Below, piece after piece: positions 1-45,327 of a stretch of DNA of 64,000 nucleotides (positions are counted from its first letter, which is position 1; each line of letters opens with the position of its first letter). The stretch covers positions 128,001 to 192,000 of the forward strand of contig CAWALK010000012.1 in assembly GCA_963782915.1 (NCBI GenBank). Reading direction: 5' to 3'. The stretch is from an uncultured archaeon. Its GTDB lineage: Archaea > Thermoproteota > Bathyarchaeia > Bathyarchaeales > Bathycorpusculaceae. The notes below the pieces were generated by a model, which had not been told where the DNA came from, searched no databases, and saw nothing but the letters and a program-made list of their open reading frames with translations. The position numbers were made by a program, and so were the translations under genes.

Positions 1-603
1 AGCTTCTTTTTGGCTTTCGCGAGGAAAATTGAGTCCAAGCCCCTTATGCGAAGGCTTGCCAACCCAAACAATCGTTACCATCGCCAACTTTGCCGAAACC
101 TCCGCTACAAACACTGCTAAAAACGCAAACAGCGGATTAAATGAGCCACGAACAACCCAGAATAAACCATAAAACGCTAAACCCTCAACAGCCAACGCCA
201 AAACTGCGCCGCCATAAGTTACTGTCCATTCGTGAGCCTTCATTTTGCGGTCATGTAGGTTGCGGATGCCGATTGCGTTGCCAAGGTCGATTAATCCGTC
301 GAAATGCTGCAATCCAGTCATGACCAGCAGGAAAGCCACGGTCATCGCCGCTGGAATCAAAGCGCCTAAAACCGCAGTTGGCAAAGCAATGTAAACGTTG
401 ACTAAACCCAGCAGGAAACCGACAATTGCGCTGGAAGCAACGAAGTACAGTCCTGCCAGCAACCCAATTAAGCCTCCGATTATTGGGAAAAGATACATGT
501 TAGAGGCGGTTGTGAAGATGAAGTCTTCTTTTCCTCCAACTGGGATTATGGTTAGGAAAGACAGCAAATCCTTGAAAACTTTTATAGCTTTCATCGCCGA
601 CAT
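1..603 (-). CDS. CobS-family membrane protein (second, divergent paralog); runs off the window edge
   Basis: Not in the ORF track. Manual translation from ATG 603: MSAMKAIKVFKDLLSFLTIIP...MYLFPIIGGLIGLLAG...MTGLQHFDGLIDLGNA...AEVSAKLAMV, collinear with CobS at 9513 (LLSFLTVFP, AFPLIGAFLGLLAG, MTGLHHTDGLLDFGDG, ELCAKLGMV). Probable frameshift near nt 35. Confidence 0.85.
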   Translation of the reverse strand, partial: MSAMKAIKVFKDLLSFLTIIPVGGKEDFIFTTASNMYLFPIIGGLIGLLAGLYFVASSAIVGFLLGLVNVYIALPTAVLGALIPAAMTVAFLLVMTGLQHFDGLIDLGNAIGIRNLHDRKMKAHEWTVTYGGAVLALAVEGLAFYGLFWVVRGSFNPLFAFLAVFVAEVSAKLAMVTIVWVGKPSHKGLGLNFPRESQKEA

Positions 604-660
604 ATACCTACCAACTTGCCTGTATATAATATAGGCTTTATCGTCTTTGGGGGATGCAAA

Positions 661-1587
661 ATGGAAGGGAAAAAGATACTGGTTACTGGCGGCGCAGGCT
701 TCATAGGCTATCACCTGTGCACGAAACTGTCAAAATTAACAGATAACTTGACTATTTATGATGATTTATCCAGCGGCAAAATGGAAAACGTCAAAGATGT
801 ACCATCCGCCAAATTCGTCAAAGGCGACATCTTAGACCAAAAAAACCTCATGGCTCTACCCAAACAGGACTTAATCTATCACCTAGCCGCCCAAGTCGTT
901 GTGCCATATTCGATGGAGAATCCCCTTATCGACTTTGAAACCAACGCCAAAGGCACAGTATGCGTTCTGGAGAAAGCACGTAAAGACGACGCAAAATTGG
1001 TGTTCGCCTCAAGCGCAGCAGTCTACGGCAACCCCACCCAACTACCAACCACCGAAGACTATGGTTTCCACCCATTCTCATGTTACGGATTATCCAAAGT
1101 TGTCGGCGAAGAATACTGCCAAATGTACCGTGAACAATACGGCCTAGACATAGTCGTTACACGCTTCGCCAACGTCTATGGCTTAAGATGCCATGGCGTC
1201 ATCCATGACTTCCTAGATAAACTAGCCAAAAACCCCGATAAACTAGAAATTATCGGCACAGGGCAACAATCAAGAGACTTAGTCCACGTTTCCGATGTGA
1301 CGGATTTGCTGGTTACCGTGGGTCAACTGGATAAAGCCAACGGCGAAACATACAACGTCGGCTATGGCACAACCATAAAAATAATTGATTTAGCAAAAAT
1401 GATGCTCCAAATCCTTGGCTTGCAGAAACGAACAGTTGTTACTACAACAGGTGTTTCTTGGCAAGGTGACATCAACACCATCTGGTTTAACAACCAAAAA
1501 GCCCGCAAGGAACTGGGCTGGAACCCCAAAGTTACGCTTGAAGAGAGCATTAAGGAAGTCATCGCTGACAGGAAAATAAAAATATGA
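661..1587 (+). CDS. NAD-dependent sugar-nucleotide epimerase/dehydratase (extended SDR)
   Basis: TGGAGFIG, FASSAAVYG and YGLSK (YxxxK) motifs; ATG 661 preferred as start. Confidence 0.92.
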   Translation: MEGKKILVTGGAGFIGYHLCTKLSKLTDNLTIYDDLSSGKMENVKDVPSAKFVKGDILDQKNLMALPKQDLIYHLAAQVVVPYSMENPLIDFETNAKGTVCVLEKARKDDAKLVFASSAAVYGNPTQLPTTEDYGFHPFSCYGLSKVVGEEYCQMYREQYGLDIVVTRFANVYGLRCHGVIHDFLDKLAKNPDKLEIIGTGQQSRDLVHVSDVTDLLVTVGQLDKANGETYNVGYGTTIKIIDLAKMMLQILGLQKRTVVTTTGVSWQGDINTIWFNNQKARKELGWNPKVTLEESIKEVIADRKIKI

Positions 1588-2468
1588 ATGCTTCCTCGCC
1601 CGCACGAGGATTAATTGCACTCTTAAGGCTTCCATATTGGCTCATGACAGGCGGCTTATCGCTATTAACAGCGTTCGCCATCCAAAAAGACCCATTGAGC
1701 ATGAGCATACAAACCGCTTTACTGATTTTCTTCTCTATGGCATTCATCACTTCAGCGGGGTTCGCCATAAACGATTATTTTGACCGCGAAAGCGACGCAG
1801 TAATCAAACCCAAACGCCCAATCCCAGCAGGCGCATTATCACTCAAACAAGTCATAGCCGTTTCTGGTGTGCTCTTTGCTGTTGGTTTGGTGATGTCTGC
1901 TTTCATTAACTGGCTTAGCTTCGCAATCATCGCCGCTGATTCAGTGGTGCTTCTGCTATACTCATTTTTAGTTAAACGGAAATCAGGTTTCGTTGCTAAC
2001 GTTGTCGTGGGCATACTAACAGGAACAGCTTTTCTGTATGGACAAGCCACAGTCAGTGTACCACCCACAATAAGCTTGATTTCTCTAAGTCTATACCCGA
2101 TTGCGTTTGGCACCATCGGCGGCAACGTCCTACGTGACATCCTCAGTGTAGAAGGCGACTCAAAAGTTGGGTATCCAACGTTGCCCCAAAAAATCGGCAA
2201 CTACAACGCAGCCAAAGTTGGCGCAGTCTTTTTCCTTTTAACTGGGTTGCTTGCTCCATTGCCGTTTTTCATCGGTGACTTCACCGTTTACTATTTGCCC
2301 TTGATTCTCCTCTGGAGCGTACTGCTAATTTACTCATCTATATGTTTGATAACTTCAGGCACAACGGTGCAGAACATACGTAAATATGAGCGCATCGTAA
2401 CCATGTCCATGATGCTGCTACCCTTAGCGTTGATAGTGGAAGCAATCGTTGGAGGCTTAATCCTTTGA
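1584..2468 (+). CDS. UbiA-family prenyltransferase, digeranylgeranylglyceryl phosphate synthase-like
   Basis: INDYFDRESDAVIKPKRPIPAG and RDILSVEGDSKVGYPTLP motifs; multiple TM helices; ATGA overlap with the upstream gene. Confidence 0.88.
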   Translation: MNASSPARGLIALLRLPYWLMTGGLSLLTAFAIQKDPLSMSIQTALLIFFSMAFITSAGFAINDYFDRESDAVIKPKRPIPAGALSLKQVIAVSGVLFAVGLVMSAFINWLSFAIIAADSVVLLLYSFLVKRKSGFVANVVVGILTGTAFLYGQATVSVPPTISLISLSLYPIAFGTIGGNVLRDILSVEGDSKVGYPTLPQKIGNYNAAKVGAVFFLLTGLLAPLPFFIGDFTVYYLPLILLWSVLLIYSSICLITSGTTVQNIRKYERIVTMSMMLLPLALIVEAIVGGLIL

Positions 2469-3937
2469 GTGAAACCAAAAGCATCTGTCCCGAATGCCAG
2501 AAAAAAATAGACGCCCAACTAGCCAACCAAAATGGCAAAATCCAAATTACCAAACAATGCCCCGAACACGGCGAATTCAAAGCCACACATTGGCAAAGCC
2601 AACCCATCTTTGACCACATGAAAAAGTACGATCAATTCCAGTACCTCGGCGACTTAAACGCACCAAAAAACCCAGAAGGTTGCCCATACGTCTGTGAAAC
2701 CTGCCATAATCATGCGTCAGGAACAGTCATCGGAGTAATCGACGTAACAAAGCGCTGTAACTTCCGCTGTGCAGTATGCTTCTCAACTTTCCCAAATCAA
2801 GAATCCACCGATTACGAACCCACCAAAGAAGCACTCATAGATATGCTAGAGTTCGCGGCGAAAGCTAACCCTAAACCGCCAGCAATCTTGTTCAGCGGCG
2901 GTGAACCGCTTGAACGGGAAGACATGCCTGAAATCATCGCTGCCGCACATCGCCTAAAGTTCATGACGATTTTAGCGACCAACGGCACTCACTTGATTAC
3001 TGATGAAGGTTTAGCTAAGCGGCTAAAAGATAACGGTTTAAACATTGTTTACTTGTCGTTTGATAGTTTCCATGAAGAGTTCAACAAGAAGATTCGTGGG
3101 CGTCCTTTGGTGGATATGAAGCTTAAGGCTCTTGATGTTTGCCGCAAGCACGACATGGAAGTCATCTTGGTTAATACTCTGATGAAGAGCCTTAACGATG
3201 AGGAAGTCGGTGACATGATTCGGTTCGCCGCTAAAAACACCGATATCGTCAGAGGCTTAATTTTCCAGCCCATAGCTTTCACAGGGCGGGCAACAGAGAA
3301 TCCTTTCCGCGAGAACTTCCGTGAATGGAGCTTCGCCGAAGACGTCGAACGGCAAACTAATGGCGAAATCAAAAGCACAGACCTCTACCCAATGTCGGTT
3401 ATGACTTCGCCGATTAAAATCATGCGCCAATTCATGCAGAAACCTTGGCCACTATTCAGCTGCAGCCCACAATGCGGTATCGTGAACTGGGTTTATGTTT
3501 CGCCCCATACGGGCAAAATGTATCCGATTAACCGCTTCGTAAACTTCGACCGCTTCTTCAACAGTATCCGCAAAACCGCTGAACATGCAGAATCTAAAAA
3601 CAAAATCCAACTGCTGGCTCCACTGTTCATGGGCGCAATGATTTCAATGAACATGCTGCTGGTAACCAGAGAAGTCGGCACCTTCACCTTGATGAAGAGC
3701 ATCCTGTCAATGCATATGGACCCAACATACAAGTCACTGGGCAAAATCCGCAGACGCATCTTCCTATTGGGCTGCATGGCGTTTATGGACAGCTACAACT
3801 TCGACGTTAATCGCGTTCGCAGATGCGTTGTCCACTACATCACACCAGACAAGAAGATTATTCCATTCTGCGCCTACAACAACGTGCATAGAGTGGCGAT
3901 TGAGAAGGATTATGCAACTAGGCAAAAGAAAGCCTAA
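2465..3937 (+). CDS. tes: Radical SAM protein of the tetraether lipid synthase (Tes/GDGT-MAS, MJ0619) family
   Basis: N-terminal CPEC...CPEHG, GCPYVCETCHNH, CNFRCAVC SAM motif, SGGEP, C-terminal MAFMDSYNFD..RVRRCVVHY..IPFCAYN. Confidence 0.85.
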   Translation: MSETKSICPECQKKIDAQLANQNGKIQITKQCPEHGEFKATHWQSQPIFDHMKKYDQFQYLGDLNAPKNPEGCPYVCETCHNHASGTVIGVIDVTKRCNFRCAVCFSTFPNQESTDYEPTKEALIDMLEFAAKANPKPPAILFSGGEPLEREDMPEIIAAAHRLKFMTILATNGTHLITDEGLAKRLKDNGLNIVYLSFDSFHEEFNKKIRGRPLVDMKLKALDVCRKHDMEVILVNTLMKSLNDEEVGDMIRFAAKNTDIVRGLIFQPIAFTGRATENPFRENFREWSFAEDVERQTNGEIKSTDLYPMSVMTSPIKIMRQFMQKPWPLFSCSPQCGIVNWVYVSPHTGKMYPINRFVNFDRFFNSIRKTAEHAESKNKIQLLAPLFMGAMISMNMLLVTREVGTFTLMKSILSMHMDPTYKSLGKIRRRIFLLGCMAFMDSYNFDVNRVRRCVVHYITPDKKIIPFCAYNNVHRVAIEKDYATRQKKA

Positions 3938-4114: not shown

Positions 4115-4615
4115 TTAGTTTATGACTTTAATGTTAAGCACGCAGTAATCCTGCGTAAACACGTAAGCAGAGCCGTCGCGTTGCCAGAGTTCAAAGACGA
4201 CAGTGTAGGTTCCGACAGTGTTCTCTGTTATGGTAACTGACTTCTCGTATGTATCGCCGTTTTTCAGGTTGAAGTCATAGGTGTTGACTGGAGCAACTGC
4301 AACTCCTTCATTTGGGGTTACGATAAAGCTTGTTGTAATCTTGGTTCTTACTTGATAGCCTTGGGTTCCGTTCATATGGCTTGTTACATCAACGTAGACA
4401 CTAAAGGTGCTGTTCTGGTTGGCAACCAAGACTTCTGGAAAATTGTTAGCTTGCTTTTGATTATCAAGCAAATAAATAGTATTATATTCTTCCGCTGGAG
4501 GTCTCAACCAAACATAGTAACCTGCAAAAACGCATCCCACAACGACTAAGGCAATAAAAACGGCAACTGCAACGCCTTTCTCATCGTCTAAGCCGATTCT
4601 TCTTCCAATGCCCAT
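4115..4615 (-). CDS. Membrane-anchored protein, DUF1616-like
   Basis: One N-terminal TM helix, EEYNTIYLLD...ANNFP, C-terminal VFELW; start taken at ATG 4615, overlapping the GT2 gene end. Confidence 0.6.
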   Translation of the reverse strand: MGIGRRIGLDDEKGVAVAVFIALVVVGCVFAGYYVWLRPPAEEYNTIYLLDNQKQANNFPEVLVANQNSTFSVYVDVTSHMNGTQGYQVRTKITTSFIVTPNEGVAVAPVNTYDFNLKNGDTYEKSVTITENTVGTYTVVFELWQRDGSAYVFTQDYCVLNIKVIN

Positions 4616-5318
4616 AACAGACCCTAAACGTTTTCGCATCCAAGAATCCCCTAAATAATGTGCTAAATATCTGAATCCCCGATTTAAATGGTTTAAGCTT
4701 CGTTTCCCCATAAGTACGAGGCTTATACGTGGTTGGAATCTCAACCATATTGTAGCCTTCCCTGGCAAATTTGATAAGCATCTCAGTGGCAAACGCCATG
4801 TCAGTTTCCTTAAACTTTACACTGTCGTATTTGTCGCGAGAGATTGCGCGGAAACCCGATTGGGTGTCGCTTAAAAATTGGCTGTAGAAGAAGTCGTAAG
4901 TGTAAGTTATGACTTTGTTGCCTAGGAAGTTTAGGAAGCCCATGGCTTTGTTTGGGTCATACATGCGGGTGGCTAAAACCATGTCTGCATCTTTTTCGAG
5001 CAGGCGGTTCACGAGGCGGTCGATGTGTTTGAATTCATAGGTGCCGTCTGCGTCAACCATGATTAAGACATTGCCCTTCGCAGCTTTCATACCAGTTCTT
5101 AAGGCGACTCCATAGCCGCGCCTTGGTTCAATGATGAGCCTGCAGCGGTTTGTGTCTTTAACGATTTCGATGGTGCCATCAGTCGAGTTACTATCAACAA
5201 TAATAATTTCCTTTGGATAACTCGTGTACCTATCGATTGTGTTGATAGCTTCTAGTATGGTGCCAGCTTCGTTAAGCGTTGGAATGACAACTGAGACCAA
5301 TTCGACTTTTGACGTCAT
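4581..5318 (-). CDS. GT2 glycosyltransferase (dolichol-phosphate glycosyltransferase-like)
   Basis: VSVVIPTLNE, VDSNSTDGT, RGYG, DADGTY, DTQSGFRA. Confidence 0.9.
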   Translation of the reverse strand: MTSKVELVSVVIPTLNEAGTILEAINTIDRYTSYPKEIIIVDSNSTDGTIEIVKDTNRCRLIIEPRRGYGVALRTGMKAAKGNVLIMVDADGTYEFKHIDRLVNRLLEKDADMVLATRMYDPNKAMGFLNFLGNKVITYTYDFFYSQFLSDTQSGFRAISRDKYDSVKFKETDMAFATEMLIKFAREGYNMVEIPTTYKPRTYGETKLKPFKSGIQIFSTLFRGFLDAKTFRVCYGHWKKNRLRR

Positions 5319-5363: not shown

Positions 5364-6530
5364 TTAAATAAGCTCTTCGTATATCTCCGCAAGCCTTTCA
5401 ACGTTTACATCCCAGCTAAACTGTGTTTCGACCATTGCTCTGAGTTCAGCTTTGCGTGGGCCAAAATCTATGTCTGCAAAATCAAAGATTGCCTGCGCGA
5501 GCAGTTCGGGTTGATTGGGCGGCACCAGTTTGCCGTATTGGTCGAGTAGGATTTCTTTTATGCCTCCAACATCGGTGGCTACTACTGGTAATCCGCATGC
5601 CATGGCTTCCATAGCAACCAACGGCAAACCCTCACCAGATTTAGAGGGCAACACAAACAAGTCCGCTGCATTATAGTATGATGGCAAATCTGCGTCACTA
5701 ACAAAGCCTGCGAGCTTAAAATTAGCGGCGATTCCCAACTGGGCAACCTGCAACCTCACATTTTCCATGTCTGGACCCTTGCCGACTACTAAGAACATGA
5801 TTTTGCGGTTCTTTTTGATGGCGATGTTTGCACAATCAAGCAATGTGTCGACGCCGTTCTTGTACACCAGCCGCCTAACAGTAAAAACAACGATGGCGTC
5901 GTGTGGGATGCCAAGTTTTTTGCGCATCTCTTCACGTTTTCCCGGAATCGTTTTAAAGCGTGCAATGTCAACGCCGTTGTAGACGACTTTTATTTTGCTC
6001 GGTTTAGCGCCTAATCTTAGGACGTAGTCTTTGGTGGCGCTGCTTATTGCTATGATCTTGTCTGCGGTTCTTAAGTTCTGTTTTCCCACAGACAAGTCGT
6101 TTACCAATTCAACTTGGTCGAAAATGTTGTTGTAATCGATGAAAGTGTTGTGTTGGGTGAGGACAAACGGTTTTTCATAGAATTTTGCCAGTTTTCCGGC
6201 TGCAAGAGAGGTTAGGTATGGGTGTCCGTGGGCGTGGATGATCTGGTTATTTTTGATTGATTTGGTAAAGGTTGGGAAACTGCCCACGGTCGGAATCGAG
6301 TATGGAATGCCTAATCGGAAGCCTGTGTTGAGGGATTCATAGCATTCAACAGGTACTCCATCAACCTTGTAGTGGCTGGGTGTGCCGATTCTGTTAGTTA
6401 CAACCATGGGCTGGTAGTTTTTGTGTTGCAGTCGCTTGCTCTGCTCGTTAACGACCTTTTCTATTCCGCCGACATGTGGCAGAAAAGTGTGGGTGACAAT
6501 GCAGAGGCGAGTTTTAGCCATGGAAGCCAA
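5364..6530 (-). CDS. GT4 glycosyltransferase
   Basis: HVGGIE, YNGVD, EGLPLVAMEAMACG (ExxxxxxxE). Confidence 0.92.
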   Translation of the reverse strand: MASMAKTRLCIVTHTFLPHVGGIEKVVNEQSKRLQHKNYQPMVVTNRIGTPSHYKVDGVPVECYESLNTGFRLGIPYSIPTVGSFPTFTKSIKNNQIIHAHGHPYLTSLAAGKLAKFYEKPFVLTQHNTFIDYNNIFDQVELVNDLSVGKQNLRTADKIIAISSATKDYVLRLGAKPSKIKVVYNGVDIARFKTIPGKREEMRKKLGIPHDAIVVFTVRRLVYKNGVDTLLDCANIAIKKNRKIMFLVVGKGPDMENVRLQVAQLGIAANFKLAGFVSDADLPSYYNAADLFVLPSKSGEGLPLVAMEAMACGLPVVATDVGGIKEILLDQYGKLVPPNQPELLAQAIFDFADIDFGPRKAELRAMVETQFSWDVNVERLAEIYEELI

Positions 6531-6581: not shown

Positions 6582-7064
6582 TTAGCAGGTTGTGCCTGTG
6601 GCTTTGAGGGCTTTGGTGTACATGTTGGATGAGGCACCTGCAACTAACGCGCCGATGGCGTCGTTGGTTAATGGTGGTAGCTCTTTTAGGATGCCGGGTT
6701 TGGCTTGGTCGAAGCGTACGAATTCGAACATGCCTTTGGAGCCGCCGATGTAAGTGGCGATGGCTATGCCGATGAGTTCATCCGCAACTAAGCCGGGTCT
6801 GCCCATAAAGCGTTCTATTGTTAAGCCTGGGATTCGGCCGTTTTGTGCTTCTTCTTGGGCGTGGAAGGCTGCGACGATGAGGGTTGAGACGTTTACGTCT
6901 GTTAGGATGTCGAGGAATTCTTCTTTGAGAAGTTCAGTGGCTTTTTGGGGGGTTTCGATGCCAGGGTGCGGTACGTACATTTCAAGGGCGCTGTCAATAA
7001 GACTTTGGAGTGAGATGCCTCTGGCTTCGAGGTAGGTTAATAGTGGCGGTATCTGGTCTTTCAT
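6582..7064 (-). CDS. cobZ: Archaeal alpha-ribazole phosphatase CobZ (PgpA-like)
   Basis: DVNVSTL, ADELIGIAIATYIGG..GMFEFVRFDQAKPGIL; next to cobT/cobS/cobY. Confidence 0.75.
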   Translation of the reverse strand: MKDQIPPLLTYLEARGISLQSLIDSALEMYVPHPGIETPQKATELLKEEFLDILTDVNVSTLIVAAFHAQEEAQNGRIPGLTIERFMGRPGLVADELIGIAIATYIGGSKGMFEFVRFDQAKPGILKELPPLTNDAIGALVAGASSNMYTKALKATGTTC

Positions 7065-7381: not shown

Positions 7382-7733
7382 TTTGCTAAGCCTTTTCGAG
7401 AACTTTGACGTAATTGCTACGATAAAAGGATTTTGTGCATTATTGGAGGAATTTCCCTGTTGAGCCATTATTATTTTGCGGTTCATTTTTTGGACCCTAA
7501 GGAACTCGCCGTTTAGTTGCGTTAGCTGTGTGCTATTCCTAGGAATCGAAATGCTTATATGAAAACGTTGGATAAACCAACCAGCAGTCCGTGTGGTAAT
7601 TTGCTAAACATAAAGAAAAACTCGATTGTATCAGCCAAAGATTTAGCTTTAGTTGAGTGTTCTGGCTGTTTGGCAAGTAAAACCTTATTTTCCTGTTTAA
7701 CTGTTTCTAACCAACCAGGAGGAAAAAAACTAG

Positions 7734-8404
7734 ATGAAAGTTGTAGCTTCATGGAGCGGCGGCAAAGACAGCTGCTACGCATACTACCTTGCCAAAGCGC
7801 AAGGCCACCAAATCCTATCATTATTAACTATGATGATGAGCGAGGACAAATCAAACTTCCACATGATACCCTCAGGCATCCTCGACGCACAGGCAGAAGC
7901 CATGGGCGTGTCCACTTAATTAAAAAGACCACTTCAGCAGCCACCTATGAGGCTGACTTCAAAGCGGTACTATCCGAATGCAAAGCCAAAGGCGCAGAAG
8001 GATTAGTCACAGGCGACATCTACGAAGTCGCAGGCCACGAAGAAGGTTGGCTTGAGCGTGTATGCAAAGAAATCGGTTTAGTAACCGTCAAACCGCTTTG
8101 GATGGGAGACACCAAACAAATCTATCTTGATTACCTCAAAACCGGTTTCAAAGCAACCGTCGTACGCACCAACAAAACCCTCAGCTTAGACTGGCTCGGA
8201 CGCGTATTAGACCGCAAATTCTACGACGACATCTTGGCACTCGGCGACGTTGACCCATGTGGCGAAGGCGGCGAATACCACACCGTAATCACCGACGGAC
8301 CCAACTTCAAACAAAAAATCGAGTTCCTAGAAACCGAAAAGAAAAGATTAGAGAATGGCTTTGGATACTTAGATATCAAGAAATGGAAAGTAACTCCAAA
8401 ATAA
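7734..8404 (+). CDS. PP-loop ATPase, diphthine-ammonia ligase (Dph6/DUF71) family; frameshift near 7915
   Basis: WSGGKDS in ORF 7734..7919 continues as VTGDI...PLW...DPCGEGGEYHT in another frame. Confidence 0.85.
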
Positions 8405-8415
8405 GGTAGAATCCC

Positions 8416-9505
8416 ATGGATGTCTTAATCGCCAACAACGAACTCAAAGCAAAAGCCTTCCTTGATGAGATTGAAGGCAAAAAACCCCTATTCATCGCAA
8501 CAATCGCCACAACAGAAACCGGCAAAATCCCCGGTTTATCTGCAGCTGGCGCAAACCCAGACTTCACTGACTTCACTCCTCCGGCAGATGCCGAGTTGTT
8601 GCTGCTTGGAAAATGCAGATCCATCCAAGGCGTCCCCATTACTCCCGACGGAATTCCGACACCGGCCCTGATTACGACTTCTGCGTTGCATTTAGCCGAC
8701 ATTCCAGTGCTGATTGTTAACGGTGGAGTTAAGGTTAAACCTCAAATTCCCTACATTGACGTTAACGGCAGCCCAGGACGCGACATCAGAACAGGCGATT
8801 CAGTGGATAATGTCGAAGAAGTCATTGAACGTGCTAAAGTTGTCGGTGAACAGTTGGCTAAAGTGTCGGATTACCTGGTTATCGGCGAAAGCATCCCCGG
8901 CGGAACGACGACAGCGTTGGGTGTTTTGACGGCGTTGGGTGTCGATGCAATGGGCAAAGTCAGCAGCACCTTACCATTAAATCCGCATAATTTGAAGGCA
9001 GAAGTAGTTACGGCAGGTTTGAAAGCCGCTGGCGAGAAATTCGGTAGCTTCAAAGGTGACCCAATCAAGGCAGTTTCCGCAGTCGGTGACCCTATGATGG
9101 CTGCGGTTGCCGGTTTAGTTATCGGCGGAAGCAGGCAGGGGCCTGTTTTGATGGCTGGCGGAACCCAAATGACCGCAGTCCTCGCAGTAATCAATGCATT
9201 AGAGCCTAAAGCGCTCTGTAACGTTGCAGTCGGCACCACACGATGGGTAGCAAAAGACAAGACCTCCGACATCTGCGGCATCACCAAGCAATTCTGCGAA
9301 GTCCCCGTCTTAGCTGCTGACCTTAGATTTTGGTCCTTCCCAATATCCGGGCTTACAAATCTACGAAACAGGGCTCGTAAAAGAAGGCGTCGGCGCAGGC
9401 GGAGCCTCAATCGCAGCCATGGCAAAGACCGGCGGAGCAGTTACCAAGCAAATTCTTCTTAAGGAGATAGAGCGTAACTATGCCTCACTGATGAACCTAA
9501 AGTGA
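8416..9505 (+). CDS. cobT: Archaeal nicotinate-nucleotide--dimethylbenzimidazole phosphoribosyltransferase; frameshift near 9325
   Basis: IPGLSAAG, TPPADAE, GESIPGGTTTA, AGGTQM; the shifted frame gives YETGLVKEGVGAGG and a stop at 9505. Confidence 0.88.
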
Positions 9506-9512
9506 GACACGC

Positions 9513-10292
9513 TTGGTCGTTAAACAGCTAAAAAACCTCTTATCTTTCTTAACCGTTTTTCCAGTCCAAATGGATAAGGACTTGCTTACTGACTGCGCCA
9601 AAAACATGTGGGCTTTCCCATTAATCGGCGCATTCTTAGGCTTGCTCGCTGGCTTGTTTGGTTGGGTTGCAACCATATTTTTGCCCAGCTTAGTCGTAGG
9701 CGCATTGGCTCTGGCGTTGCTGCTTTGGATGACTGGGCTGCATCACACTGATGGTTTGCTGGATTTCGGCGACGGCGTCATGGTACATGGCACCCCCGAA
9801 AAGAAAATCGAGGTTATGCATGACCAACTCACAGGTGCAGGCGCAATCGGCTTAGCACTCATGACCTACATCGTCACTGCGTTTGCGTTTGCTTCCCTCG
9901 GCGGAAACCAGAATATCTTTGGTTTTAGGGTGCCCTTGATTCTTCCTGCGTTAATCGTTATCGAGTTATGCGCCAAGTTGGGTATGGTTGTGGCTGCCCG
10001 TGCAGGCCGATCAGTGCATCAGGGCATGAACTCATCTTTTCTCCAAGCAATGCATGGAAGCGGCGGAAACTGGCGTCTCGCGTTAGCGTTGGTGATTTCG
10101 TTTGCAGTTGCGTTACCTTTGCTGGGTTTAGGCGGCATCTACGTCGTCTTAGCCGCTGTCGTTACTGGGTTAGTGATGGTTGGGGTTGCACATAGGAACT
10201 TTAACGGCGTCACAGGCGACGTGTTCGGCTCAACCAACGAGTTAACACGCATGGTTTGCGCTGTGGTGTTATTGGCGGTGGTTGCATGGTAA
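9513..10292 (+). CDS. cobS: Adenosylcobinamide-GDP ribazoletransferase
   Basis: LSFLT, GLHHTDGLLDFGDG, MHD..TGAG, GVTGDVFG..NE. Confidence 0.93.
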   Translation: MVVKQLKNLLSFLTVFPVQMDKDLLTDCAKNMWAFPLIGAFLGLLAGLFGWVATIFLPSLVVGALALALLLWMTGLHHTDGLLDFGDGVMVHGTPEKKIEVMHDQLTGAGAIGLALMTYIVTAFAFASLGGNQNIFGFRVPLILPALIVIELCAKLGMVVAARAGRSVHQGMNSSFLQAMHGSGGNWRLALALVISFAVALPLLGLGGIYVVLAAVVTGLVMVGVAHRNFNGVTGDVFGSTNELTRMVCAVVLLAVVAW

Positions 10293-10907
10293 CTGCGTTG
10301 GTTATGGCTGGTGGCAAAGGCACCCGCATGAAGCTCGCTGAAGAGAAGCCGCTTATCAAAGTCTGTGGCAAACCCGTGATTGAGTATGTGCTTGCTGCAT
10401 TGAAGAGACGCTAAAAAAATTGATCAACATAATCGTGGCTACATCCACTACTACGCCAAAAACTACGGCGTTGATGAAGCACTCGGCGTCCAAGTTATCC
10501 AAACTCCAGGTAAAGACTATGTTTCCGACATGGGCTACACGGTCCAAACGCTCAAGTTCGGCGTTTTCTTAGCAATCGCGGCTGATTTGCCATTGGTGAA
10601 GCCTGAAATGATTGATGCAGTGGTGGAACGTTATGAGCAATGCGGCAAACCTGCGCTAACGGTTGCGGTGCCGCTTGAAGTTAAAGCCAAGTTGGGCATG
10701 AGCATCGAATACAGCTTCAAAACCGACGACAACTGTGACGTGGTTCCAGTCGGCATAAACGTCATAGACGGCAGCAAACGTTACGGCGACGAATGGCTCG
10801 ACCAAGACATCTACATCCTAAACCACGAAGAACTCGCCGTTAACATCAACACAGTGCAGGAACTACAGCTGGCAGAACGCATGTTGGCTGAGAAACTTAA
10901 GAAATAG
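10286..10907 (+). CDS. cobY: GTP:adenosylcobinamide-phosphate guanylyltransferase; frameshifted between about 10400 and 10490
   Basis: ATG 10286 gives MVTALVMAGGKGTRMKLAEEKPLI; the C-terminal ORF has ADLPLV, PVGIN, NINTVQEL. Confidence 0.82.
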
Positions 10908-44808: not shown

Positions 44809-45327
44809 ATGGATATCGCCCTGCTAATAGTTGAAGCCTTAAAATTCATCTTTCCCGCCTACTGCGCCAACGGCACACCCGTACTCGCCGGAGGAGGCAA
44901 AAAAATGGATTTCGGCAGAAACTTTATCGATGGCAAACGCATCTTCGGCAACAACAAAACTTTTCGGGGTTTCTTCTTCGGCTGGGCAGTCGGCTTCTTG
45001 GTGGGGATACTTGAAGGCTTTATTTTCGGCTTCGAAAACTATCCGGTCCTGTTTAGCATATTGATTCCTTTGGGTGCACTTTTGGGTGATTTGACGGGTG
45101 CATTCATTAAGCGTAGATTAAGCATTCAACCGGGCGGGTTGTTGCCTATTGTGGACCAGATTGACTTCGTTGTTGGCGCTGTGGTGTTTGCGTTGCCGCT
45201 GGCTTTGACTGGTTTGTTTGTGTTGACTTGGCAGGTTGCGGTTGTGGTGTTAGTGATTACTCCGCCGATTCATCTGCTGACTAACTTTGGTGCTTACAAG
45301 TTAAAGTTGAAGAAGCATCCCTGGTAG
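44809..45327 (+). CDS. carS: CDP-archaeol synthase
   Basis: PAYCANG.PV, DGKRIFG..KT.RG, GDL.GAFIKRR, DQIDF, KKHPW. Confidence 0.93.
   Translation: MDIALLIVEALKFIFPAYCANGTPVLAGGGKKMDFGRNFIDGKRIFGNNKTFRGFFFGWAVGFLVGILEGFIFGFENYPVLFSILIPLGALLGDLTGAFIKRRLSIQPGGLLPIVDQIDFVVGAVVFALPLALTGLFVLTWQVAVVVLVITPPIHLLTNFGAYKLKLKKHPW

Follow-up and report, generated by a model that had tools for sequence, protein, structure and literature searches.

A divergent CobS subfamily encoded beside accessory copies of isoprenoid-lipid genes in Bathyarchaeia

CobS, as described from Salmonella and from archaea and recognised by the families PF02654 and TIGR00317, is a polytopic membrane protein with HxDxxxD and GxxGDxxG..NE motifs, encoded next to a gene of the CobY type. 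It is treated as an enzyme of single function. A second, divergent CobS gene, here called cobS', stands at the start of a 64,000-nucleotide stretch of DNA from an uncultured archaeon of the Bathycorpusculaceae (G000:C12:128001-192000, where G000 is the source genome), and this whole stretch is referred to as the window. CobS' belongs to the same fold family, is likewise a polytopic membrane protein, and has kept both motifs and the CobY-type neighbour. In contrast with CobS it has no cobT partner and is paired with genes for a UbiA prenyltransferase (UbiA') and a radical SAM enzyme (Tes'), accessory paralogs of digeranylgeranylglyceryl phosphate (DGGGP) synthase and of tetraether synthase (Tes). 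These genes, together with those that share their distribution, are called the module. Annotation pipelines call the CobS' paralogs 'adenosylcobinamide-GDP ribazoletransferase'.

The steps catalysed by CarS and the CDP-alcohol phosphatidyltransferases are formally the same as that of CobS: a nucleotide-activated phosphate ester and an alcohol give a phosphodiester and a nucleoside monophosphate. CobS' nevertheless has no sequence relation to these nucleoside diphosphate (NDP)-alcohol phosphotransferases, for whose head-group chemistry the Kennedy pathway is the comparison case. In the literature searched, no title or abstract describes linkage between a CobS paralog and genes for Tes or UbiA.

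A CobS subfamily with three changed residues

The open reading frame (ORF) in the window exceeds the PF02654 gathering score of 23.2 with 58.4 bits, as do the two parts into which the gene is split on the full contig (N-part 62.5, C-part 38.1). PF02654 was the only family reported at E<=0.01, and the CDP-alcohol phosphatidyltransferase family PF01066 gave no match. Against TIGR00317, with its cut-off of 110, the standard CobS of the same genome scores 152, and the intact relatives of CobS' score 113.1 (P0004), 103 (P0121) and 101.7 (P0133). The two CobS proteins of the genome are 40% identical. Over 100 proteins in the databases (276-283 aa, 71-96% identical to CobS') carry the name of ordinary CobS or no name at all. 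On clustering at 50% identity the subfamily makes up few clusters (271, 218 and 136 bits), below which the continuum of standard CobS begins. A tree of 104 CobS proteins places all 31 tips with the GN[AV] signature together (SH-aLRT 99, stem length 0.36), so that the paralog does form the clade of its own for which the first-pass annotation, made from the letters of the window, had suggested looking.

Residues were counted over 67 CobS' and 135 standard CobS proteins from many lineages. The HxDxxxDxxD motif reads HxDxxxDxxN in 67/67 CobS', with Asn in place of the third Asp, D106, which is retained in 133/135 standard proteins. M120 is Ala in 67/67. D122 (Asp in 130/135 standard proteins) has become Ala, Val or Glu and G126 (Gly in 134/135) Thr, Ser or Asn, both being lost throughout CobS', and W123 is present in 66/67. 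Retained are H97, D99, D103, E165, K169, D254, N260, E261 and R264, and with them the GxxGDxxG motif (G253 in 67/67, D254 in 66/67, G257 in 67/67). The motif changes noticed at first pass are real: cobS' encodes QHFDGLIDLGNA where the standard protein has HHTDGLLDFGDG, and AHEWTVTYGG where the latter has MHDQLTGAG.

In Salmonella CobS the motif is 80-HxDxxxDxxD-89. According to the available part of the mutational study (PMC8092220), the changes D82A, D86A, D89A and D229A abolish function in vivo, M104A weakens it, and the loop that holds the motif is proposed by the authors to bind adenosylcobinamide-GDP (AdoCbi-GDP). CobS' has no equivalent of Salmonella D89, where Asn stands instead, or of M104.

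A hydrophobic insertion of ~25-30 residues, extra to CobS, follows the second helix of CobS' and is modelled as part of two helices at a predicted local distance difference test score (pLDDT) of ~90. The model as a whole has a mean pLDDT of 81.7, and its catalytic loop (96-125) lies below 50. No sequence relative was found in the PDB, and a Foldseek search with the model returned no match at E<=0.001. Judged by sequence, CobS' is a separate and strongly conserved subfamily of CobS, in which most of the family-invariant residues are kept and three are changed.

The module, its linkage and its distribution

The module occupies the first part of the window and continues across its start:

G000:C12:127751-128000, before the window start: last ~250 nt of cobS', encoding GGVSGDMIGATNE
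1..603, minus strand: cobS' (CobS paralog), first 603 nt; frame broken by a one-base insertion at 33-34
604..660, no strand: divergent intergenic region of 57 bp, common to cobS' and the SDR-UbiA'-Tes' operon
623..642, minus strand: A-rich plus TATAT element, conserved, with the sequence GATAAAGCCTATATTATATA in the sense direction of cobS' and interpreted as BRE/TATA-like; ~30 nt upstream of the cobS' ATG
661..1587, plus strand: SDR, NAD-dependent epimerase/dehydratase family, 308 aa; PF16363 191 bits, PF01370 184 bits, under all NCBIfam equivalog cut-offs
1584..2468, plus strand: UbiA' prenyltransferase, DGGGP-synthase-like paralog, 294 aa
2465..3937, plus strand: Tes' radical SAM enzyme, tetraether-synthase paralog, 490 aa
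4115..4792, minus strand: DUF1616 membrane protein; overlap of the ORF start with GT2 makes a true start further downstream probable
4581..5318, minus strand: family 2 glycosyltransferase (GT2), AglJ / dolichyl-phosphate hexose transferase-like
5364..6530, minus strand: family 4 glycosyltransferase (GT4), with the same presence/absence pattern as the module

The first-pass annotation had described a CobS-like gene only 57 bp from a translationally coupled epimerase-UbiA-Tes operon, GT2 and GT4 genes beyond it and a canonical cobS at 9513 in a cobT-cobS-cobY operon, and the sequence bears out each of these points. The cobS' ATG lies at 603-601 on the minus strand, and the gene runs past the window start; the SDR ATG faces it at 661, and SDR, UbiA' and Tes' overlap by 4 bp at each junction. 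Beyond Tes' come DUF1616, GT2 and GT4 on the minus strand, then cobZ, a conserved ORF and the standard cobT, cobS and cobY (cobT to cobY, 8416-10907). At its other end the cobS' stop overlaps (ATGA) the ATG of a 206-aa MobA-like nucleotidyltransferase of the CobY kind, which exceeds the PF12804 cut-off (66.8 bits) and misses those of NF045495 (96.1 bits against 250) and TIGR00454 (124.6 against 174.7).

The linkage of SDR, UbiA' and Tes' to cobS', the second property that the first-pass annotation had singled out for checking, is conserved across two families, f1 and f7. Every one of the 19 loci from the same genus has the unbroken block cobY-type <- cobS' / SDR -> UbiA' -> Tes'. Among 80 named loci at >=53% identity, partly on the same contigs as these 19 and hence not to be added to them, the trio SDR, UbiA' and Tes' is present in 77 and cut by contig ends in the remaining three, and the cobY-type gene is present in 79 and cut in the other. 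UbiA', Tes', CobS' and CobY occur in all 20 further loci from other genera; in three same-family genera (L157, L159, L164) UbiA' directly faces cobS' with no SDR between. The nine f7 loci (L064 and, among the 20 just named, the eight loci L146-L153), whose proteins are only 39-49% identical, have a different order, GT4-(GT2)-DUF1616-SDR-UbiA'-Tes' and, after 2-5 kb, cobS'-cobY, all co-directional. In one of them (L064 11189-12619) Tes' and cobS' have between them, on the opposite strand, a gene for a pyridine nucleotide-disulphide oxidoreductase.

The divergent intergenic region measures ~47-57 bp across loci. Its A-rich plus TATAT element is found in 77/80 loci, in 66 of these 77 at 28-31 nt from the cobS' ATG. 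A contig of 206 nt that comes from run X20, a metatranscriptome library, and has 4 mismatches spans the intergenic region and both gene starts (L001 2090-2295, window 590-795); it is not evidence of transcription.

Genes for earlier loop-assembly steps also come in two copies. The genome encodes CbiB twice (332 and 275 bits, 39% identity between the copies) and a CobD-like protein twice (34% identity), in both cases with one copy 10-20 kb upstream of cobS'; CobT is single. CobD' adjoins cobY in 9/9 f7 loci and lies within 10 kb in most f1 loci, and in several f1 loci CbiB' comes directly after cobY. The two CobY types are exchanged in one subclade of the genus, where the standard-locus type follows cobS', and the CobY' type with CbiB' follows the standard cobT-cobS (L171 8079-13265, L172 8895-11364, L173 9727-12220).

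The distribution of the module was followed through a class sample of 401 genomes, 279 of them in families other than f1 and f7. CobS' is present in 79/401, 68 in f1 and 11 in f7, and in 0/279 of the other families. Tes' is found in 76/401, all among the 79, the three exceptions being fragmented or having cobS' at a contig end. Of the 78/401 genomes with the CbiB' type, 75 are among the 79. For the remaining genes, 16 module-bearing genomes were compared with 28 module-less ones, the two groups having been picked from the CobS'/Tes' distribution: UbiA' and CobD' are each present in 16/16 and 0/28, as is the module-type AhbD/Gms-like radical SAM-SPASM protein, and GT4 in 15/16 and 0/28. Many module-less genomes have a radical SAM-SPASM homolog of ~510 aa, 41-45% identical to the module type. 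One genome of the same genus (G413, a single contig) lacks every module gene counted here and has the standard cobT, cbiB, cobD, cobS and cobY together. cobS' is part of an accessory module specific to two families of Bathyarchaeia.

The lipid enzymes of the module have the family resemblance that the first-pass annotation saw in them, to DGGGP synthase and Tes, but both are accessory paralogs and not the housekeeping copies. Tes' shares with Tes / GDGT-MAS an N-terminal zinc ribbon (PF23545, 60.9 bits), the CxxxCxxC radical SAM motif (CNFRCAVC) and alignment over its full length, and exceeds the NF045702 cut-off of 450 with 460 bits. It differs in being a second copy, restricted to module-bearing genomes and 78-92% conserved within the genus. 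The other Tes of the genome, on a different contig and 38% identical, reaches 670 bits and probably joins two archaeol tails into glycerol dialkyl glycerol tetraether (GDGT). A look-up of Tes' in the ESM Atlas and a look-up of cluster members gave generic names only. A role of Tes' as Gms was rejected, Gms being a homolog of AhbD and not of Tes in the available parts of PMC11186832 and PMC11214058.

Of four UbiA genes, one encodes heme O synthase, one a DGGGP-synthase-like protein, one UbiA' and one a divergent protein. UbiA' has its best family matches to DGGGP synthase and contains the first Asp-rich motif, NDxxDxxxD; in contrast with that enzyme its second motif reads RDILSVEGD and it misses both equivalog cut-offs (NF009521 164.1 against 296, NF009523 171.9 against 269). 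The housekeeping DGGGP-synthase-like copy, 30% identical to it, scores higher. The genome also encodes CarS and two CDP-alcohol transferases (PF01066). Replacement of these by the module was accordingly rejected, and the module is an addition. The window itself contains CarS (CDP-archaeol synthase, PF01864 147.7 bits), at ~44824-45324 and 40 kb from the module.

Two further groups of radical SAM genes lie in the region. A radical SAM/SPASM protein of 480 aa, AhbD-like and extended by 120 aa at its N terminus, is encoded with a DUF362 protein beside the module in both families (L065 10851-13236, G000:C12:122851-125236), and may be a Gms-like enzyme, that is, one like the synthase of glycerol monoalkyl glycerol tetraether (GMGT). 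Upstream of the module, around CbiB', are four B12-binding radical SAM genes, BchE/HpnJ-like and all under cut-offs (L167 4301-13468, L065 2904-4334, G000:C12:102-116 kb). No support was obtained for the module as a butanetriol dialkyl glycerol tetraether (BDGT) pathway. The available part of a preprint (10.1101/2025.10.20.683597) places the extra methyl on the glycerol backbone.

The frameshifted copy in this assembly

Compared with its relatives, cobS' carries one extra base at window 33-34. On the full contig the gene is consequently split over two frames, the N-part ending after an out-of-frame tail and the C-part, with GGVSGDMIGATNE, lying in another frame, whereas the intact proteins of relatives (280-283 aa, 96% identity) have HKGLGSIFLAKAKKK / KPSHKGLGSIFLAKAKKK. 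Similar insertions are found in the standard cobamide set of the window:

6582..7064, minus strand: CobZ-like alpha-ribazole phosphatase, standard cobamide set; TIGR03161 139.9 bits, cut-off 152.5
8416..9462, plus strand: archaeal-type cobT, present once in the genome; a one-base insertion lies near 9321
9513..10292, plus strand: standard cobS; PF02654 136.8 bits, TIGR00317 152 bits
10286..10907, plus strand: standard-locus cobY; broken by two one-base insertions, ~10407 and ~10424

The conserved ORF at window 7559-8404 (~225 aa in relatives), which is always directly upstream of cobT, module-less genomes included, has two more insertions at ~7908-7915. In the 30-kb stretch compared with intact orthologs of relatives (C12:112-142 kb) there are thus six single-base insertions, one in cobS', two in this ORF, one in cobT and two in cobY, all within 10.5 kb, and 15 other genes of the same stretch are free of them.

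If the insertion is genuine, cobS' is a true pseudogene in this genome, which would be compatible with every reading of the family. Besides the frameshift itself, this would account for the way in which the other five insertions strike cobT, cobY and the ORF next to cobT and leave the 15 other genes clean; in addition, CbiZ (adenosylcobinamide hydrolase, G000:C12:70647-71217) is split over two frames and the C1 copy of cobD (L166 6498-7322) is truncated. Against decay, all six differences are single-base insertions, with no deletions or stop codons at the six sites, other long-contig assemblies of relatives also give split hits, in different genes, and the CobS' family is strongly constrained. 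Public sequencing runs do not settle the matter directly, since none covers the stretch (best share 0.15), and the relatives' contigs are without the extra base. The exclusive occurrence of insertions and the split hits elsewhere favour an error of the consensus, which we consider fairly probable, and leave a true pseudogene somewhat doubtful.

Candidate products of the module

The reading preferred here is that the module forms a second line of loop assembly, with an acceptor that comes from lipid and glycosyl enzymes and not from CobT, and that the product is a phosphodiester-linked lipid conjugate. Built on gene content and sequence comparison, this is about an even call. CobS' would keep the CobS chemistry, a hydroxyl attacking the GDP-activated phosphate ester made by the CobY-type enzyme, with departure of GMP and formation of a phosphodiester. 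The acceptor would not be CobT's alpha-ribazole phosphate; it would be a hydroxyl, most simply that of a sugar, belonging to an isoprenoid ether lipid or glycolipid that UbiA', Tes' and GT4/GT2 build, a sugar hydroxyl being nearest to the native ribose 3'-OH. What points to such an acceptor is that every loop-assembly step is duplicated except the acceptor-making CobT, in whose place stand SDR-UbiA'-Tes' and the glycosyltransferases. The cobS' and SDR-UbiA'-Tes' operons would be co-expressed from their divergent region of ~50 bp, with its one conserved TATA-like element.

The first-pass annotation had proposed that the paralog attaches a head group or unusual backbone, supplied by the NDP-sugar epimerase, to ether lipids. 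The best reading is indeed a new function connected with isoprenoid-lipid genes, given the separate clade, the conserved linkage and the loss of a residue that is essential for the cobamide synthase. The SDR has to be dropped as obligatory head-group supplier, since it is missing in some loci, and in place of an NDP-sugar the donor may still be a GDP-activated corrinoid, as the constant CobY-type partner, the second CbiB and CobD and the single CobT suggest. Two donors come into question, and they are evenly matched. With AdoCbi-GDP the product would be a lipid-anchored corrinoid; this donor is favoured by the seeming interchangeability of the CobY types and by the genera in which CbiB' or CobD' has no second copy. 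If the donor were instead a small GDP-amino-alcohol obtained from what CobD' makes, the step would be a Kennedy-like transfer of a head group, and in favour of this are the substitutions in the putative AdoCbi-GDP-binding loop. The most specific form of the proposal, that CobS' joins GDP-activated adenosylcobinamide to a sugar or alcohol hydroxyl of an isoprenoid (tetra)ether glycolipid from UbiA', Tes' and GT4/GT2, giving a membrane-anchored corrinoid, is quite unlikely; if true, such a corrinoid could serve the many membrane-acting B12-dependent radical SAM enzymes encoded nearby.

Several observations weigh against a lipid-linked function. The intact relative P0004 still scores above the TIGR00317 cut-off (113.1 against 110), and Asp to Asn is a mild change, the Salmonella mutants in the available part of PMC8092220 having been Ala substitutions. 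The copy of cobS' in this assembly is frameshifted, and the SDR is missing in 3/20 other-genus loci. The exchange of CobY types between cobS and cobS' suggests that the two types are interchangeable. CbiB' is the sole CbiB in genera g23 and g24 and CobD' the sole CobD in G200, G347, G040 and G398, and in these genera they probably do ordinary cobamide (salvage) jobs; CbiB' and CobD' probably still do so in general. CobS' is found without standard CobS only in G366, a 92%-complete genome. Island genes, finally, can come and go together without a common product.

Several of these points would fit a second cobamide synthase, CobS' acting in a duplicated loop set (CbiB', CobD', CobY', CobS') for another lower ligand or linker, with the lipid and glycosyl genes as mere neighbours on an island. 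All four paralogs are still recognisable members of their families, some genera have CbiB' or CobD' and no other copy, the CobY types have changed places in one subclade, and in f1 the module adjoins cobZ-cobT-cobS-cobY. The Asp that CobS' has changed is, however, kept in nearly all standard CobS (133/135) and essential in Salmonella (PMC8092220, as far as available); no second CobT was found in the genome, nor any other lower-ligand activating gene in the loci compared. The proximity to UbiA' and Tes' outlasts rearrangement at 39-49% identity in f7, where the standard cobS lies 47 kb from the module (G040), and one common promoter region of ~50 bp is conserved. Taken together these leave a second synthase unlikely. 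The assembly (93.5% complete) yielded no TIGR00313 (cobyric acid synthase); the organism is not concluded to be a salvager only, as near-complete B12 pathways are reported for Bathy-6 metagenome-assembled genomes in the available part of PMC11697101.

Nucleotidyltransferase/phosphotransferase pairs add phospho-amino-alcohols to bacterial surface polymers. That CobS' and the CobY-type enzyme decorate in this way a glycan (dolichol-linked or S-layer, built by GT4, GT2 and DUF1616) and not a membrane lipid would agree with the resemblance of the GT2 genes to AglJ / dolichyl-phosphate hexose transferases, with a GT4 that follows the module pattern and with a CobD' that would provide the amino-alcohol phosphate, but it is very unlikely: UbiA', Tes' and the Gms-like radical SAM protein, which are equally strict in their pattern, would be left without explanation, and the annotated loci showed neither a flippase nor an oligosaccharyltransferase.

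The significance of the compact module lies in a whole subfamily of CobS that is altered at a residue essential for function and inherited only alongside duplicates of the enzymes by which archaeal isoprenoid chains are attached and coupled. Bathyarchaeia of the Bathy-6 type are abundant in soils, peat and guts. If a lipid-linked function is true, they make an unrecognised phosphodiester-linked lipid or lipid-bound cofactor, and this would bear on the reading of archaeal lipid biomarkers, on the genome-based prediction of cobamide producers and on the question of why cobamide loop assembly is membrane-bound.

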